Shown here: piece by piece, positions 1 through 9,461 of the stretch
How positions within the stretch are numbered: position 1 is the first letter of the stretch
Layout: the number at the start of each line of letters is the position of its first letter
Assembly (NCBI RefSeq): GCF_009931435.1
Contig: NZ_CP043414.1
DNA length: 64,000 nt
Strand: one strand, 5' to 3'
Source of the DNA: Escherichia coli
GTDB taxonomy: Bacteria > Pseudomonadota > Gammaproteobacteria > Enterobacterales > Enterobacteriaceae
Program-made: the position numbers and the translations under genes
Notes under the pieces: generated by a model
Database searches by the model: none
Told to the model about the DNA's origin: nothing
The model's input: only the letters and a program-made list of their open reading frames with translations

Positions 1-779
1 GCTGACCTGCGGGGTCGGCAACTCCTCAGGCATGGTTCCGCCAAGTTCCTGAATGGTTTGCCTCACCTTGCTACCCACGTCAAAGTGTGTGGTATTAGCT
101 TGCTGTTTTGAATTCACGCCATCCCGCTTGAGTTTTTCTTCTGTTTGGGTAGCTCGAAAGAGATTAGCCGCCAGTTCTGTTGAACCCATATGATCCAGGA
201 TCTTCTGACTCTTTTTCAGCCCCTTCCGCTGATGGATGGCTTTCTGATCTAATCCACCATACAGTCCCCGGTAACCATGATTCTGAAATATGGCGAAATC
301 GATAGCTGTCGCTACCCCAGCTTGCTGCGCTGCCTCAACTAATTGTTTGTTATGTTCTTTCAACTCATTTCTCAGAAAAAGACGCTTTTCGTCTTCACGA
401 AGTTGCCTGAAAGCTTCATCGTCAGCCAGCTCCTGCCGTCGGGTCTGGATAGCAAAATAAGTTTGCCCTGCCGCAATAACCGGTTTCGCAGGGTCGCCGT
501 TTTGTACTACCAGGTAACAGGCATAGCGGGAGAGTACGATGTCTTTTAATGCTCTTTTGGCATTTGAGCCAATTTTGACCATATCGAGGATCTCCTCGAA
601 ATGGTCATCAATTGTGTGACCACTATTCAGACAAGCTTCTTTGGCGCGCGTTAATACAGGTATAAAGTGACGATACTCTGAATAACCCAGTAGTTTTCCA
701 AGTTGTCTTGCTGACCATTGTTCTGCTCCGTTTGCATTAATCAGCTTTATCTCTTCAAAAGGTTGATGATGTTCGTTCA
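1..779 (-). CDS. dinD: DNA damage-inducible protein DinD, 3' end truncated by window edge
   Basis: Minus-strand translation from ATG near 779 reads MNEHHQPFEEIKLINANGAEQWSARQLGKLLGYSEY... and stays open to position 1; not in ORF track because it has no stop inside the window. LexA box immediately upstream. Confidence 0.8.
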
Positions 780-825
780 TTGCCCACTCCATGTGATATC
801 GATTGCAAAGAAAGTAAATCTGCAA

Positions 826-841
826 CTGTATTTATATACAG
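826..841. promoter_or_regulatory. LexA box (SOS operator) in dinD promoter
   Basis: Sequence CTGTATTTATATACAG is a perfect CTGT-N8-ACAG palindrome about 50 bp upstream of the dinD start; dinD is a known LexA-regulated gene. Confidence 0.7.
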
Positions 842-1000
842 TTGTGAGTATCTCACGTTCTCAGTGTGCTGGGCAAAAAAACATCGCAAAATCTGGAGCA
901 GGCACGCAAAACAGAATTGAAGTTGCGGGGAAGAAAAATGCCGCTCTGTTTGAGTGGGCGGCATTTGTGAAGGCTGAAAAGTAAGAATTGGCGTTACGAG

Positions 1001-1864
1001 TTATTCAATGTTCTGAATCTGCTCGCGCATCTGCTCAATCAACACTTTCAGCTCAATCGCGGAGTTAGTCACTTCGGCATTGATAGACTTCGAGGCCAGG
1101 GTGTTCGACTCGCGGTTGAACTCCTGCATCATAAAGTCCAGACGACGACCAACGGCTTCTTTTTTCTTCAGAATGTTGTAGGTCTCTTTAACATGCGCTT
1201 CGAGGCGGTCCAACTCTTCGGCAACGTCAATTCGTTGTGCCAGCAGAACCAACTCCTGCTCCAGACGGTTGTTTTCCAGTTGCACCTGGGCGTCTTCCAG
1301 CTTAGCCACCAGACGTTCACGCTGCCATTGCAGGATTTCCGGCATGTGGGCGCGGACTTTGACCACTTCGGCGGTCACGCCTTCCAGACGCTGCTCGATC
1401 AATGCTTTCAGCGCCTGACCTTCGGTTTCGCGCGCGACGATAAAGTCATCCAGCGTACCATCCAGCGCCACGAGAATTTCAGCGGCAATCGCGTCGAGAT
1501 CCTGTTCCTGGGCCGCCATCACGCCTGGCCAGCGGAGAATATCAACCGGGTTGATTTCCCCTTCGTCACTCTGCATTTTTACCCAGTTCGCGGCAGTTAC
1601 CAGCTGTTTAGCCAGTTTTTCGTTGAGGATCAGCTCACCTTGTGCGCTGACATCTGGCTCATAGCGCAGGGTACATTCCACTTTACCACGCGTCAGGCGA
1701 GAACGAATACGCTCGCGAACGACAGGTTCAAGGCTACGGAACTGCTCCGGCAGACGAAAGTAAGTTTCCAGATAACGCTGGTTTACCGAGCGCATTTCCC
1801 AGGTTGCGCTCCCCCATTCACCCTTGATTTCACGCCGGGCGTAGGCGGTCATACTGCGGATCAT
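1001..1864 (-). CDS. yicC: YicC family stress-induced protein
   Basis: ORF track 287 aa, MIRSMTAYARREIKGEWGSATWEMRSVNQRYLE...; conserved position beside rph. Confidence 0.9.
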   Translation of the reverse strand: MIRSMTAYARREIKGEWGSATWEMRSVNQRYLETYFRLPEQFRSLEPVVRERIRSRLTRGKVECTLRYEPDVSAQGELILNEKLAKQLVTAANWVKMQSDEGEINPVDILRWPGVMAAQEQDLDAIAAEILVALDGTLDDFIVARETEGQALKALIEQRLEGVTAEVVKVRAHMPEILQWQRERLVAKLEDAQVQLENNRLEQELVLLAQRIDVAEELDRLEAHVKETYNILKKKEAVGRRLDFMMQEFNRESNTLASKSINAEVTNSAIELKVLIEQMREQIQNIE

Positions 1865-1990
1865 AGACGTTCCTGTTTATAAAAGGAGAGGTGGAAGGAT
1901 TATAGCCATCGATGCCTTGTCAGGATAGGAATAACCGCCGGAAGTCCGTATAATGCGCAGCCACATTTGTTTCAAGCCGGAGATTTCAAT

Positions 1991-2707
1991 ATGCGTCCAG
2001 CAGGCCGTAGCAATAATCAGGTGCGTCCCGTTACCCTGACTCGTAACTATACAAAACATGCAGAAGGCTCGGTGCTGGTCGAATTTGGCGATACCAAAGT
2101 ATTATGTACCGCCTCTATTGAAGAAGGCGTGCCCCGCTTCCTGAAAGGTCAGGGCCAGGGCTGGATCACCGCAGAATACGGTATGCTGCCGCGTTCTACT
2201 CATACCCGTAATGCCCGTGAAGCGGCGAAAGGTAAGCAGGGGGGACGCACAATGGAAATCCAGCGTCTGATCGCCCGTGCTCTTCGCGCGGCAGTAGATT
2301 TGAAAGCGCTGGGTGAGTTCACCATTACGCTGGACTGCGACGTGCTTCAGGCTGATGGTGGCACGCGTACCGCTTCGATTACCGGTGCTTGTGTTGCACT
2401 GGCCGATGCCCTGAATAAACTGGTTGAAAATGGCAAGCTGAAAACCAACCCGATGAAAGGGATGGTAGCCGCGGTTTCTGTCGGGATTGTGAACGGCGAA
2501 GCGGTTTGCGATCTGGAATACGTTGAAGACTCTGCCGCTGAAACGGACATGAACGTGGTGATGACCGAAGACGGGCGCATCATTGAAGTTCAGGGAACGG
2601 CAGAAGGCGAGCCGTTTACCCATGAAGAGCTACTCACCTTGTTGGCGCTGGCCCGAGGGGGAATCGAATCCATTGTAGCGACGCAGAAGGCGGCGCTGGC
2701 AAACTGA
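1991..2707 (+). CDS. rph: ribonuclease PH (intact, 238 aa)
   Basis: ORF track 1967..2707; canonical start [38 protein letters not shown] at the ATG 24 nt inside the track ORF. Reading frame is intact to the stop. Confidence 0.93.
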
Positions 2708-2712
2708 TTTTT

Positions 2713-2741
2713 AAGGCGACTGATGAGTCGCCTTTTTTTTG
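2713..2741 (+). terminator. pyrE attenuator: intrinsic terminator hairpin in rph-pyrE spacer
   Basis: AAGGCGAC-TGATGA-GTCGCCTT stem-loop followed by a T8 run, between the rph stop and pyrE start; matches the known UTP-sensitive pyrE attenuation mechanism. Confidence 0.8.
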
Positions 2742-2772
2742 TCTGTAGAAAAGTAAGATGAGGAGCGAAGGC

Positions 2773-3414
2773 ATGAAACCATATCAGCGCCAGTTTATTG
2801 AATTTGCGCTTGGCAAGCAGGTGTTAAAGTTTGGCGAGTTTACGCTGAAGTCCGGGCGCAAAAGCCCCTATTTCTTCAACGCCGGGCTGTTTAATACCGG
2901 GCGCGATCTGGCACTGTTAGGCCGTTTTTACGCTGAAGCATTGGTGGATTCCGGCATTGAGTTCGATCTGCTGTTTGGCCCTGCTTACAAAGGGATCCCA
3001 ATTGCCACTACTACCGCAGTGGCGCTGGCGGAGCATCATGACCTGGACCTGCCGTACTGCTTTAACCGCAAAGAAGCAAAAGACCACGGTGAAGGCGGCA
3101 ATCTGGTCGGTAGCGCGTTACAAGGACGCGTAATGCTGGTGGATGATGTGATCACCGCCGGAACGGCGATTCGCGAGTCGATGGAAATTATTCAGGCCAA
3201 TGGCGCGACGCTTGCTGGCGTATTGATTTCGCTCGATCGTCAGGAGCGTGGTCGCGGCGAGATTTCGGCAATTCAGGAAGTTGAACGTGATTACAACTGC
3301 AAAGTGATCTCTATCATCACCCTGAAAGACCTGATTGCTTACCTCGAAGAGAAGCCAGAAATGGCGGAACATCTGGCGGCGGTTAAGGCCTACCGCGAAG
3401 AGTTTGGCGTTTAA
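2773..3414 (+). CDS. pyrE: orotate phosphoribosyltransferase
   Basis: ORF track 2758..3414; canonical start [36 protein letters not shown] at ATG 2773. Confidence 0.95.
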
Positions 3415-3421
3415 AAATATG

Positions 3422-3450
3422 CGCTGCGCAGGTTTTTACTGTGCGCAGCG
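3422..3450 (+). terminator. stem-loop downstream of pyrE (possible terminator or retron boundary hairpin)
   Basis: CGCTGCGCA / TGCGCAGCG 9-bp inverted repeat with an 11-nt T-rich loop; no clear downstream T-run, so the terminator role is uncertain. Confidence 0.35.
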
Positions 3451-3484
3451 TGATGCGGTTTAAGATATCGTGTTAATCTGCTTT

Positions 3485-3678
3485 CGCCAGCAGTGGCAAT
3501 AGCGTTTCCGGCCTTTTATGCCGGGAGGGTCGGCGAGTCGCCGACTTAACGCCAGTAGGTTGTCCAGATACCCAAAGTCGCTCCATTGTACTTAAGTACG
3601 CTTCGCGTACGTCGCGCTGACGCGCTCAGTACAGTTACGCGCCTTCGGGATGGTTTGATGGTATTGCTGCTGTTGGCG
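3485..3678 (+). ncRNA. msr-msd: retron msr-msd non-coding region (template/primer RNA for msDNA)
   Basis: About 190-nt non-coding stretch directly upstream of the RT gene, flanked by inverted repeats a1 (about 3485-3503, CGCCAGCAGTGGCAATAGC) and a2 (about 3660-3678, GTATTGCTGCTGTTGGCG) that pair over 17 bp allowing G-U wobbles; internal palindromes (GTACTTAAGTAC, GTCGGCGAGTCGCCGAC) fit the msd stem. Boundaries are approximate. Confidence 0.6.
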
Positions 3679-3710
3679 CCTCTTTTGGCCGCCGTGATGT
3701 GGAGAGTGGA

Positions 3711-4670
3711 ATGGATGCTACCCGGATAACCCTTCTGGCGCTCGATTTGTTCGGCTCGCCGGGCTGGAGCGCCGATAAAGAAATACAGCGGCTGTATGCG
3801 CTCAGTAATCATGCCGGACGCCATTACCGACGCATTATTCTTTCTAAACGCCACGGTGGTCAGCGGCTGGTGTTAGCCCCTGATTACTTGCTCAAAACCG
3901 TACAGCGCAACATTCTTAAGAACGTCCTTTCACAATTTCCACTTTCCTCTTTTGCTACCGCCTACCGACAGGGTCGCCCAATCGTCAGCAACGCGCAGCC
4001 TCACTGCCAACAGCCGCAGATCCTTAAACTCGATATCGAAAACTTTTTCGATAGCATTAGCTGGCTACAGGTCTGGCGTGTGTTTAGCCAGACCCAGTTG
4101 CCACGCAATGTGGTAACCATGCTGACCTGGCTTTGTTGCTATAACGACGCGTTACCGCAGGGGGCGCCAACTTCGCCTGCCATTTCCAATCTTGTGATGC
4201 GCCGTTTTGATGAGTGCATAGGGGAATGGTGTCAGGCTCGGGGAATTACCTACACCCGCTACTGCGATGACATGACCTTTTCTGGTCACTTCAATGCCCG
4301 CCAGGTTAAAAATAAAGTATGCGGATTGTTAGCGGAGCTGGGCCTGAGCCTCAATCAACGCAAAAGCTGCCTGATAGCTGCCTGTAAGCGCCAGCAGGTA
4401 ACCGGGATTGTTGTTAATCACAAGCCACAGCTTGCCCGTGAAGCGCGCCGGGCGCTGCGTCAGGAAGTACATTTGTGCCAAAAATATGGCGTTATTTCGC
4501 ATCTTAGTCATCGTGGTGAACTTGATCCTTCTGGCGATCTCCACGCACAGGCAACGGCGTATCTTTATGCTTTGCAGGGAAGAATAAACTGGTTATTGCA
4601 AATCAATCCTGAGGATGAGGCCTTTAAACAGGCGAGGGTGAGTGTAAAGCGAATGCTGGTGGCATGGTAA
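3711..4670 (+). CDS. ret: retron-type reverse transcriptase (319 aa)
   Basis: ORF track 3699..4670 (start taken at first ATG, 3711). RT motifs visible: LKLDIENFFDSI, QGAPTSPAISNL, YTRYCDDMTF (YxDD box), GLSLNQRKS, and retron-typical VTG motif (RQQVTGIVVNHKP). Sits between pyrE and slmA, which are adjacent in K-12. Confidence 0.9.
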   Translation: MDATRITLLALDLFGSPGWSADKEIQRLYALSNHAGRHYRRIILSKRHGGQRLVLAPDYLLKTVQRNILKNVLSQFPLSSFATAYRQGRPIVSNAQPHCQQPQILKLDIENFFDSISWLQVWRVFSQTQLPRNVVTMLTWLCCYNDALPQGAPTSPAISNLVMRRFDECIGEWCQARGITYTRYCDDMTFSGHFNARQVKNKVCGLLAELGLSLNQRKSCLIAACKRQQVTGIVVNHKPQLAREARRALRQEVHLCQKYGVISHLSHRGELDPSGDLHAQATAYLYALQGRINWLLQINPEDEAFKQARVSVKRMLVAW

Positions 4671-4678
4671 GAAAAGCG

Positions 4679-4700
4679 TCAGGCAGACGTTTCTGCCTGA
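4679..4700. terminator. hairpin between convergent RT gene and slmA (candidate bidirectional terminator)
   Basis: TCAGGCAGA-CGTT-TCTGCCTGA perfect 9-bp stem; on the minus strand it is followed by a T-rich tract. Confidence 0.5.
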
Positions 4701-4713
4701 ACGTTTGGGAGAA

Positions 4714-5310
4714 TTACTGCAACTGCGCAGCAATTAGCGGCCAGCGGGCGTCAAAGTCATCCGTCGGGCGGTATTTAAACTCGCTGCGGACAAAGCGTGA
4801 CAGCATACCTTCACAGAAGGCCAGGATCTGGCTTGCCAGCAGGGTTTCGTCGGTGGTGTAACCTTCACCCTCACGCATTCTCTTTTCACGCAATACCTGA
4901 CGCAACTGCGCTTCAATACGCTCGAATAGCTGGTTGATGCGCCCTTGCAGGCGATCCTGTTCAAACATTAGTGCATGACCAGTGAGGATGCGGGTCAGGC
5001 CAGGATTACGCTCACCAAAACCGAGAAGCAGCAACACAATCAGACGCAGGCGCGCTGTGGTGTCTTTCTCATCTTTCAGAATCAGATTGATGCGAGTAAT
5101 CAGGCTATCTTCGATAAACTCAATCAGGCTATCGAACATGCGGGTCTTACTGGGGAAGTGGCGATACAGTGCCGCTTCGGAAACGCCGACAGAGGCGGCC
5201 AGTTTTGCCGTCGTGATACGTTGGCTTCCATCGCTGGATTCCAGCATCAGCGCCAGAGACTGAAGTATTTCCTCGCGACGGTTCCTTTTCGCAGTTTGTT
5301 TTTCTGCCAT
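4714..5310 (-). CDS. slmA: nucleoid occlusion factor SlmA (TetR family)
   Basis: ORF track 4714..5352; canonical start [52 protein letters not shown] 14 codons inside the track ORF. Confidence 0.95.
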
Positions 5311-5416
5311 GTTACAAAATACCCCTGAAAATAAGCACTTGCCAGGCGGCACCCACGCTATGACCGCAAACGAAATGTTTGCGGCTATGTTATGACGTTA
5401 TTCGGATGCGTATGTG

Positions 5417-5875
5417 TTACTGACGACCAGAGTGACCAAAGCCGCCTTCACCGCGGTCGGTGGCGTCGAAATCTTCCACCAGATTAAATTCAGCCTGTAC
5501 TACCGGAACAAAAATCATCTGGGCGATGCGTTCGCCAGGTTGAATGGTGAAGCTGTCCTGACCACGGTTCCACACGGAAATCATCAACTGGCCCTGATAG
5601 TCAGAATCGATCAATCCTACCAGGTTACCAAGCACGATACCGTGCTTATGTCCCAATCCGGAGCGCGGCAGCATCATTGCCGCCAGTGAAGGATCGGCAA
5701 TATGAATCGCCAGCCCGGTCGGAACCAGCGTAGTGTCACCCGGAGCCAGTTCTACGGCGTCGTCGAGACAGGCACGCAGGTCAAGTCCGGCAGAGCCAGA
5801 GGTGGCATAAGTCGGGAGCGGAAATTCCTTCCCAACGCGCGGGTCCAGAATCTTAACGTCGATTTTTTTCATCAT
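5417..5875 (-). CDS. dut: dUTP diphosphatase
   Basis: ORF track 152 aa [37 protein letters not shown]...; the true start may be the second Met (5872). Confidence 0.95.
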
Positions 5876-7073
5876 AACGGGTCACGATCTCGTCGAGTAA
5901 TAATTGGCCAAGGAGCTCTTTGCGCTCAAGCGGTAAGACTTTATCTCCGTCCTGCCAGAAAAGGTGTAATGCGTTGTTGTCGCTGTTAAATCCTTGAGTT
6001 GGCTGGGAAACATCGTTCGCGCAGATCAGATCAAGGTTTTTACGGATACGTTTTTGCCGGGCGTATTCTTCCACATTATTTGTTTCGGCGGCAAATCCAA
6101 CGACGTAGGGTCGATGGTCTTTTAGTGCGGCAACACCAGCGACGATATCGGGGTTTTTAACCATTTTTATTGTTAATTCATCACCCTGCGTGGCCTGCTT
6201 TTTGATTTTCTCTGGGGCTACGGTAGCTGCGCGATAATCCGCCACGGCGGCGCAACCGATAAAAATATTTTGCTGCTGTACAGAAGCATTCACGGCCGCT
6301 TCCATTTCCAGCGCAGTCATCACATCAACACGTTTAACAAACGGTGGCGTCGGTAGTGAAACCGGACCTGATACCAGCGTGACGTTCGCGCCACGACGGG
6401 CAGCGGCGGCGGCGATAGCAAAACCCATCTTGCCTGAGCTGTGATTAGAGATATAACGCACCGGATCGAGCGGTTCACGCGTCGGGCCGGCGGTAATCAT
6501 AATGTTCAGATGTTTCAGGTCGTTGACGGGCGAAAAATGTGCTACCGCCATATCAACAATGGTTAACGGATCGAGCATTCGCCCAGGGCCGATATCACCA
6601 CAAGCCTGACTGCCGCTATCTGGCCCCCAGATGAGCAAACCACGCGAGGCAAGCAGCTCTAAATTATGCTGCGTGGCAGCTGCACGGTACATCTGCTGGT
6701 TCATGGCGGGCAGCACGGCTACAGGCGCAGGTGTAGCCAGGCAAATCGTCGATACCAGGTCATTCGCCATTCCGGCAGCAACACGGGCAATCAAATCTGC
6801 CGTGGCAGGGGCGAGAATCACTAAATCAGCCCATTTACCCAGCTCAATATGGCCCATAGCGGCTTCGGCTGCCGGGTCAAGCAGACTGTCGGAAACGGGA
6901 TACCCCGAAACTGCCTGCAAGCTAAGTGGGGTAATAAAGGCTTTTGCCGCTTCGGTCATGGCTACGCGGACGTCGGCCCCGCGATCGCGCAAACGACGCG
7001 CCAGTTCAGGGGTTTTATAGGCAGCAATACCGCCGCTGACGCCGAGAACGATTTTTTTACCGGCCAGGCTCAT
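5853..7073 (-). CDS. coaBC: bifunctional phosphopantothenoylcysteine decarboxylase / phosphopantothenate-cysteine ligase
   Basis: ORF track 5853..7145; canonical 406-aa start [37 protein letters not shown] 24 codons inside the track ORF. Confidence 0.95.
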
Positions 7074-7244
7074 GATGATTTTTCCTGTTGGGTGACACCA
7101 GAAGTTGGCGATTTTATCACAATACTTTTGTTGTCGTGCCTTCACCTGAAAATCACTTTGCGAGGCGCTTTCCAGGATTGAAAACTGACCGTCGATTTAA
7201 CGGAACGGCTATGACAGGATGCGAGCACCACAAAGGAGGTGAAG

Positions 7245-7913
7245 GTGAAAAACAATGCACAGCTGTTGATGCCGCGCGAAAAAATGCTGAAGTTTGGCAT
7301 TGGTGCGTTAACGGATGTTGAGCTGCTGGCGCTATTTCTGCGTACCGGAACGCGCGGTAAAGATGTATTAACCCTGGCAAAAGAGATGCTGGAGAATTTC
7401 GGCTCTCTTTATGGCTTGTTAACCTCTGAATATGAACAATTTAGCGGTGTTCATGGAATTGGTGTGGCGAAGTTCGCTCAGTTAAAGGGGATTGCTGAAC
7501 TGGCGCGGCGTTACTACAACGTGCGGATGCGTGAAGAAAGCCCTTTACTCAGCCCGGAGATGACGAGGGAATTTTTACAAAGCCAGCTCACGGGCGAGGA
7601 GCGGGAGATCTTTATGGTGATCTTTCTCGACTCCCAACACAGGGTTATAACGCATAGCCGTCTTTTTTCCGGCACGCTAAACCATGTTGAAGTCCATCCT
7701 CGGGAAATTATCCGCGAAGCGATAAAAATAAACGCCTCGGCGCTGATCCTTGCACATAATCACCCTTCGGGTTGTGCTGAACCCAGTAAAGCGGATAAAC
7801 TCATTACCGAACGGATAATAAAAAGTTGTCAGTTCATGGATTTACGCGTGCTCGACCATATCGTGATTGGGCGTGGAGAGTATGTTTCTTTTGCCGAACG
7901 CGGCTGGATTTAA
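7245..7913 (+). CDS. radC: RadC-like JAB domain protein (YicR/RadC)
   Basis: ORF track 7239..7913; ...[40 protein letters not shown]... with HNHPSG motif; start assigned to GTG at 7245, 5 nt after an AGGAGG Shine-Dalgarno. Confidence 0.85.
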
Positions 7914-8108
7914 CCCGCTATGCGCGATCCTTCGGGATCTTTGTCTGTTCGGGACTTGAGCACATCGCTGAGTCAGCGTATACTACGCCACCTTTGAGAA
8001 TCTCGGGTTTGGCATTTGGGCCTGGCAATCGAGAGTTCACATAGAACTGCGATGACCGGGCTGTAAAGCCTGACGAGGCGCCAATACCCCATACGAAGCT
8101 CGAGCTAA

Positions 8109-8366
<258 letters not shown>

Positions 8367-8383
8367 GTACTTAGAGGAAATAA

Positions 8384-8554
<171 letters not shown>

Positions 8555-8651
8555 TTCTCGCTTTGATGTAACGAAAAACCTCGCTCCGGCGGGGTTTTTT
8601 GTTATCTGCTTGCCCCCATATTGACTGCATCTGTTGATTCCTGGAGATGCT

Positions 8652-9461
8652 ATGCCTGAATTACCCGAAGTTGAAACCAGCCGTCGCGGCATAGAACCGC
8701 ATCTCGTTGGTGCAACCATTCTTCATGCGGTGGTGCGCAACGGACGCCTGCGCTGGCCGGTTTCAGAAGAGATTTATCGATTAAGTGATCAACCAGTGCT
8801 TAGCGTGCAGCGGCGGGCTAAATATCTGCTGCTGGAGCTGCCGGAGGGCTGGATTATCATTCATTTGGGGATGTCTGGCAGCCTGCGCATCCTTTCAGAA
8901 GAACTTCCTCCCGAAAAGCATGACCATGTTGATTTGGTGATGAGCAACGGCAAAGTACTGCGCTATACCGATCCTCGCCGCTTTGGTGCCTGGCTGTGGA
9001 CCAAAGAGCTGGAAGGGCATAATGTGCTGGCCCACCTTGGACCGGAGCCGCTTAGCGACGATTTCAACGGTGAGTACCTGCATCAGAAGTGCGCGAAGAA
9101 AAAAACGGCGATTAAACCGTGGCTGATGGATAACAAGCTGGTGGTAGGGGTAGGGAATATCTATGCCAGCGAATCTCTGTTTGCGGCGGGGATCCATCCG
9201 GATCGGCTGGCGTCATCACTGTCACTGGCAGAGTGTGAATTGTTAGCTCGGGTGATTAAAGCGGTGTTGCTGCGTTCGATTGAGCAGGGCGGTACAACGC
9301 TGAAAGATTTTCTGCAAAGTGATGGTAAACCGGGCTATTTCGCTCAGGAATTGCAGGTTTACGGGCGAAAAGGCGAGCCGTGTCGAGTGTGCGGTACGCC
9401 GATTGTGGCGACGAAACATGCGCAGCGGGCAACGTTTTATTGTCGGCAGTGCCAGAAGTAA
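8652..9461 (+). CDS. mutM: formamidopyrimidine-DNA glycosylase
   Basis: ORF track 8634..9461; canonical start [20 protein letters not shown] (N-terminal Pro catalytic residue after Met) at ATG 8652; C-terminal zinc finger [25 protein letters not shown]. Confidence 0.95.

Follow-up and report, generated by a model that had tools for sequence, protein, structure and literature searches.

Retron-Ec107 at the pyrE–slmA site of Escherichia and its solo relatives: a retron clade without a cis-encoded effector

Described retrons closest to the pyrE–slmA element

Retrons are now understood as three-part toxin–antitoxin defence systems. Among the tripartite retrons of type II-A, Retron-Eco1 (Ec86) holds a reverse transcriptase (RT) of 320 residues, of the same size and fold as the RT described here, and a non-coding RNA (ncRNA) built on the same plan of a1/a2, msr, and msd. 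Ec86, however, has an adjacent effector, which has been solved in complex with the RT (title of PDB entry 7v9x), whereas Ec107 has none. Among retrons bearing an effector, those of type III-A, exemplified by Retron-Eco11 (PMC12746101), have the RTs nearest to the one described here; their ncRNA likewise lies directly upstream of the RT. At III-A1-like loci, the effector is encoded upstream on the same strand, which is the position of pyrE in the window (the whole 64-kb stretch of DNA that was analysed). In contrast to type III-A, the element in the window and about 80 closer relatives hold neither a PRTase_III-A gene nor a small auxiliary ORF.

Retron-Ec107, also designated Retron-Eco5, goes back to Herzer et al. 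1992 (cited after PMC6868368). It has been described as taking the place of the pyrE–slmA (ttk) palindrome, as it does in the window, as producing msDNA, and as being more strongly expressed upon starvation (PMC6868368). Its msDNA has been reported to be 2'-5' branched (PMC6868368; PMC8989520). The absence of an effector is not a new observation, but one that is already documented. Mestre et al. 2020 found that the branch of RT clade 2 containing Retron-Eco5 has no associated protein cluster and referred to its members as "stand-alone/orphan"; they suggested that the associated protein was lost, also remarked on the adjacent PRTase, and left an effector acting in trans or a different mechanism as options (PMC7736814). 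According to the same authors, most genomes hosting orphan retrons hold no homologues of the known retron effectors (PMC7736814). Ec107 was left out of the phage tests of Millman et al. 2020 (10.1101/2020.06.21.156273), and pairs of RT and ncRNA from clade 2 are among the best producers of RT-DNA on their own (PMC10849725). A literature search found no paper assigning a function or a phenotype to Ec107. The present analysis adds the selection acting on the RT, the compensatory pairs of the ncRNA, the insertion site shared across hosts, the solo relatives, the lack of a close viral copy, and a distant sister group linked to PRTase_III-A genes.

Identity and insertion site of the element

The element occupies positions 3415-4713 of the window (~1.3 kb) and consists only of the msr–msd ncRNA and the RT gene. 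It is bordered by two housekeeping genes that lie outside of it: pyrE (2773..3414, plus strand), a 213-aa ORF for orotate phosphoribosyltransferase whose product is 99.5% identical in amino acids to that of K-12, and the convergent slmA (4714..5310, minus strand), coding for a nucleoid occlusion factor of 198 aa that is 100% identical to SlmA of K-12. The sequence-only reading had placed the RT ORF directly between these two genes, in agreement with the ORF coordinates and stop codons determined here; the convergent slmA is indeed nearby, although the spacing of 44 bp given for it is actually 43 nt between the RT stop and the slmA stop (4714-4716), a trivial difference.

Alignment with the empty-site junction of K-12 revealed that the 1.3-kb element stands where K-12 has a short palindromic spacer, between the stop codons of pyrE and slmA. 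The element in the window, inserted between pyrE and slmA (ttk) in exchange for a palindromic intergenic sequence and devoid of any mobile-element context, thus has the setting that characterizes Retron-Eco5. Furthermore, the RT is nearly identical to the Ec107 reference RT, sharing 306 of 319 residues (96%) with a UniRef cluster member named Q05804_ECOLX. Together with the assignment of the RT by PADLOC as RT_Ec107-like, the replaced palindrome and this identity establish the element as the known Retron-Ec107 (Retron-Eco5), with which it shares the site, the 319-aa RT bearing a YCDD box, the layout of the ncRNA, and the lack of an accessory ORF. The allele in the window diverges by ~4% of nucleotides from the common E. 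coli allele, and its RT differs from the Ec107 reference at 13 amino acids. Of 5426 complete E. coli genomes, 381 (7%) carry this element at this site, which is chromosomal in all of them.

Two hairpins delimit the insertion (strand unspecified for both). Just 3' of the pyrE stop, a 9-bp perfect inverted repeat (I4; 3422..3450) occupies the place of the K-12 palindrome, although it is unlike the hairpin of the K-12 empty site; this left-end hairpin is retained with compensating changes in two orthologous loci (L005 and L008; L numbers designate the loci compared). At the other end, a terminator-like hairpin with a 9-bp stem followed by a minus-strand T-run (4679..4700) is common to the convergent RT and slmA transcripts.

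The flanking housekeeping DNA (window 1-9000) reaches no more than 97.2% identity with any of the complete E. coli genomes, which places the window in a divergent Escherichia lineage. Even so, 197 contigs bearing the label E. coli or Escherichia encode exactly this RT protein.

The reverse transcriptase

The RT gene (3711..4670, plus strand) is intact and encodes 319 residues, starting at an ATG preceded by GGAG and ending at a TAA stop (4668-4670). Its best PADLOC match is RT_Ec107-like (2.1e-132), aligned from RT residue 5 to 314 against positions 4-306 of the 307 of the profile, and is followed by the RT_III-A models (2e-93). The retron RT matches of NCBIfam all fall below cut-off, and RVT_1 is the sole Pfam domain (residues 46-233, 6.8e-21). 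The catalytic YCDD box lies at residues 184-187, and its C-D-D is invariant in 14 relatives of the clade. Two retron motifs were also recognized, NAQPH at residues 94-98 and VTG at 230-232; in the clade alignment N94, H98, V230, T231, and G232 are invariant, and A95 is nearly so. The protein therefore combines the RVT_1 fold with a YxDD box, as expected of a retron RT, and its fold is that of the solved retron RTs. The YCDD box is an unusual variant, and four cysteines (C142, C174, C185 within the box, and C256) are invariant in the 14 clade RTs, which come from both Proteobacteria and Firmicutes.

The AlphaFold model of the protein (pLDDT 88.9) aligns with the solved Ec86 RT chains, of 309-314 residues, over 309-313 columns with a TM score of ~0.68. 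Consistently, residues 34-266 are co-linear with residues 43-282 of the 320-aa Ec86 RT at the sequence level. As the model spans the full length of the Ec86 RT chain, it leaves no room for a fused effector, and the C-terminus is predicted to be an ordinary retron RT C-terminal region with no added domain.

The msr–msd ncRNA

The ncRNA lies in the 296 nt that separate pyrE from the RT. Its 5' end is formed by the 17-nt inverted repeat a1 (3485..3501), which pairs with a2 (3662..3678), also of 17 nt, both on the plus strand as are the features that follow. Directly 3' of a1 is an unpaired G (3502), the predicted branching residue that would prime the msDNA, which sits within an AATAG motif invariant in the 10 aligned ncRNAs. 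The msr body (3503..3554) folds into two stem-loops (~3506-3526 and ~3527-3547) according to the MFE fold and to RNAalifold, and holds the invariant loop GGCGAGTCG. The msd template region (3555..3661, with approximate ends set by assuming the 107-nt msDNA of the literature) comprises a long stem (3571-3592 with 3628-3649) bearing two inner hairpins. The msDNA would be the complement of the msd and would fold into a branched hairpin. Flanked by a1 and a2, msr and msd lie immediately 5' of the RT gene, and a G follows a1, which is the arrangement of a retron ncRNA.

The fold is more stable than that of shuffled sequences (z = -4.66), and 21 of the 54 predicted pairs, including pairs of a1/a2 and of the RNAalifold msr, show compensatory changes in the 10-sequence alignment, which reaches Leminorella, Budvicia, and Pragia and in which several loop motifs are invariant. 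The ncRNA of the window is 77-80% identical to those of L005 and L008, compared with 44.5% at the third codon positions of the RT, which points to a strongly constrained RNA that is far more conserved than those positions. No retron family was recognized in an Rfam scan of window positions 2500-5500, which gave just a RyhB-like match at the rph terminator and a spurious match to an lncRNA.

Search for an effector at the locus

The sequence-only reading had proposed that the retron has no effector, either adjacent or fused, and both parts hold. Searches against Pfam and PDB sequences, together with a fold search, detected no fused effector domain in the 319-aa RT, which yielded RVT_1 alone and an Ec86-like fold from end to end. 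Likewise, PADLOC gave no match for pyrE, slmA, dut, rph, and yicC, nor for two small ORFs in or beside the element. The element accordingly holds no effector adjacent to or fused with the RT, as tripartite retrons do, and no adjacent PADLOC PRTase_III-A effector, with or without a winged-helix partner, as type III-A retrons do.

Several small ORFs were considered and rejected. A 102-aa antisense ORF spanning the msd and the start of the RT (3546-3854) has no counterpart in the orthologous loci L002, L005, and L008, and a 71-aa antisense ORF (4329-4544) is not retained in the orthologues. Antisense ORF "clusters" were apparent across 49 loci, but their boundaries shift, and they are a by-product of the conservation of the sense frame. 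A small plus-strand ORF (4664-4861) runs antisense to slmA, and PADLOC gave no match for it.

The remainder of the 64-kb window holds no retron-type effector, only ordinary chromosomal genes, among them the waa genes (LPS core), envC, gpmM, gpsA, lldPD, mtlDR, an adhesin, and RhsA. The adhesin is a trimeric autotransporter of 1517 aa (39658-44211), and the RhsA region (54684-62371) comprises a core gene of 1397 aa and, after it, two orphan C-terminal Rhs fragments.

Selection and residence at the pyrE–slmA site

The RT was compared with E. coli alleles (96-99% amino-acid identity) and with those of an Escherichia sp. (87%), an Enterobacteriaceae MAG (72%), and Pseudocitrobacter (69%). In seven comparisons dN/dS ranged from 0.05 to 0.18, even where synonymous sites were saturated, which indicates that the Ec107 RT is under purifying selection. 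In all these hosts, alleles down to 67-69% RT identity are situated between pyrE and slmA. At 69-72% amino-acid identity, and with dS saturated, the RT has diverged about as far as radC, a fast-evolving neighbour (64-72%, dS ~2.2), a comparison that fits a long vertical co-divergence at this site; vertical inheritance would in turn account for the conservation of the site.

The closest of the E. coli copies listed, in strain 2020CK-00188 (L015 4312-5271, 98.6% nucleotide identity), the orthologue of window 3711-4670, has its RT annotated as a pseudogene and bears an internal stop at codon 65. This copy, together with the presence of the element in so small a share of the complete E. coli genomes, shows that the retron is dispensable, at least in some strains.

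Just past yicC, ~3 kb from the retron, some Escherichia genomes hold an integrase-led island (L002 1849-3102, L003 491-1750, L017 160-1413), and others hold dinD. No link between this island and the presence of the retron was seen in the loci examined.

Solo relatives and the PRTase-linked sister group

Among the matches listed, approximately 80 relatives of the element are solo retrons, distributed over several phyla and including Enterobacterales, Neisseria, and gut Firmicutes. A scan of species-representative genomes yielded at least 80 further Ec107-like loci, mostly from gut Firmicutes. The neighbours of these retrons differ between lineages: the Leminorella copies lie between cyaY and cyaA, those of Pragia and Budvicia between a cdaR-like gene and garD, and those of a Neisseria sp. 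and Robinsoniella among other genes. All-against-all clustering of the ORFs within 6 kb of the RT at 90 loci recovered no common neighbour family beyond local synteny; 67 of these loci had at least 2 kb on both sides, and the genes were crude ORF picks, so that small or fast-evolving partners could escape. Closely spaced downstream genes of the Firmicutes loci were rejected as effectors, as they belong to unrelated housekeeping families, for instance YchF, a ROK kinase, ornithine cyclodeaminase, and an aldo-keto reductase.

Solo retrons tend to keep one housekeeping site per lineage, as seen in Pragia and Budvicia (L011/L020), two Leminorella (L009/L010), two Listeria (L081/L086), and two Lachnospiraceae (L022/L023). 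This stable chromosomal residence within lineages is an unusual pattern for defence genes. Carriage of Ec107-like retrons by phages was rejected, given that no RT on the IMG/VR viral contigs is more than 42% identical to that of the window, the best match reaching 42%. In a neighbour-joining tree without support values, the Enterobacterales copies fall among the Firmicutes copies.

The possibility of an effector-less retron, also raised by the sequence-only reading, is the one that these data favour: the solo state extends over the clade and is under selection, and, judging from the sequences compared, the lack of a cis effector is the normal, selected state of the whole clade rather than a product of decay.

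One metagenome-assembled relative (L091 385-1962) has an RT ORF of 525 aa, with a C-terminal extension of ~230 residues that contains GSGNNGGDG and has no PADLOC match. This extension could be a real fusion, or an artefact of assembly or a frameshift.

PADLOC PRTase_III-A genes (1e-89) were found, among the matches listed, at only six of the most distant loci (L079, L080, L088, L094, L096, and L097), whose RTs are 36-40% identical to that of the window and which in the same tree, lacking support values, branch apart from the solo clade. The gene order of this sister group is PRTase, an ORF of ~100 aa, the gap housing the ncRNA, and the RT. In the window (2773-4670), pyrE, the ncRNA, and the RT follow each other in the same order and on the same strand as the PRTase_III-A gene, the ~100-aa ORF, the ncRNA, and the RT do in the sister group. 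This likeness is probably a coincidence. PyrE and the PRTase_III-A effectors have only the PRPP loop in common, with 33% identity over 69 aa.

Two Flavobacterium RTs of the PRTase-linked group (L092 5103-7356, and L093) are accompanied by two upstream genes, one of them PLD/DrmC-like (PADLOC 1.5e-20). This pair may represent a different effector module.

Function of the RT–msDNA module

The persistence and movement of the module without a linked partner make it most likely that RT and msDNA are self-sufficient, needing at most universal host factors, a reading that is held here with moderate confidence and that derives from the absence of a linked partner. According to this proposal, a 1.3-kb module would be kept, and occasionally transferred between distant hosts, with no partner linked to it; the position of the Enterobacterales copies among those of Firmicutes would reflect transfer of the module alone. 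The RT–msDNA ribonucleoprotein would itself be the functional product, would require no more than universal host factors such as RNase H, and, in contrast to tripartite retrons, would hold no dedicated toxin in check. Candidate outputs would be the titration of a DNA-binding protein of a phage or of the host, or a role linked to starvation.

A two-component organization of this kind has possible analogues in DRT2 and DRT9, which also combine an RT with a structured ncRNA and have no separate effector gene. In these systems, the cDNA product itself acts. However, DRT2 and DRT9 belong to another class of RTs, in which the protein of the window does not fall (it scores 57.8 bits with NCBIfam Drt2, whose cut-off is 390, and 51.3 with Drt3a, whose cut-off is 200), and the product of Ec107 is, according to the literature, a 107-nt branched msDNA, with no rolling-circle or homopolymer product known.

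Alternatively, in line with the partner encoded elsewhere that the sequence-only reading had listed as an option, Ec107 could be one part of a split tripartite system, in which RT and msDNA restrain a toxin encoded elsewhere that is freed upon phage infection. Every characterized defence retron needs its effector (PMC7736814; 10.1101/2020.06.21.156273), the RT is under selection, and the sister group bears PRTase_III-A effectors, all of which speak for such a system. Nevertheless, partners in defence are normally linked, whereas no linkage was seen at any of the ~80 solo loci listed, despite their spread over several phyla. In addition, the tree, albeit one without support values, implies that the module was transferred alone, the 64-kb window holds nothing resembling such an effector, and the scarcity of known effector homologues in orphan-retron genomes described by Mestre et al. 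(PMC7736814) points in the same direction, making an unlinked toxin unlikely.

The retron could also be a functionless relic of a type III-A-like ancestor, left without its effector and carried along through inertia or hitch-hiking. The loss of an associated protein suggested by Mestre et al. (PMC7736814), the 7% of complete E. coli genomes carrying the element, the pseudogene found in one close copy, and the lack of a reported phenotype are all compatible with this idea. However, a relic would hardly be expected to show such low dN/dS values, maintained even where synonymous sites are saturated, catalytic and retron motifs invariant in 14 clade members, an ncRNA conserved through compensatory changes, and a large solo clade spanning several phyla, so that decay appears quite improbable.

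Lastly, the co-option of a neighbour, put forward as an option by the sequence-only reading, with the genuine PRTase PyrE or the DNA-binding protein SlmA replacing the PRTase-like and DNA-binding effectors of type III-A, is very improbable: the mirrored gene order of the sister group, the pyrE–slmA site kept in at least three genera, and the adjacent PRTase remarked on by Mestre et al. (PMC7736814) speak in its favour, but relatives elsewhere sit between unrelated genes, pyrE has no PADLOC PRTase_III-A match and shares the PRPP loop alone, PyrE and SlmA show no sign of adaptation with respect to the retron-free K-12, and vertical inheritance explains the conservation of the site.

Extending the self-sufficient reading from the element to its relatives, it is possible, and can be advanced only tentatively, that Ec107-like retrons form a large, chromosomally fixed family of two components, in which the RT–msDNA particle acts as the effector, as a sponge or decoy for a DNA-binding protein of phage or host, for example, or in a role linked to starvation, and no toxin takes part. 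As regards the window itself, its retron is a rediscovery of a documented open question, which the finding by itself makes no easier to test. A large clade holding RT and ncRNA alone, under purifying selection, nonetheless does not fit the tripartite toxin–antitoxin model, and a self-sufficient family, if confirmed, would represent a mode of retron action distinct from it. Knowing what Ec107-like retrons do would reveal whether a toxin is needed for msDNA to act, which bears both on the biology of retrons and on the production of RT-DNA by clade 2.
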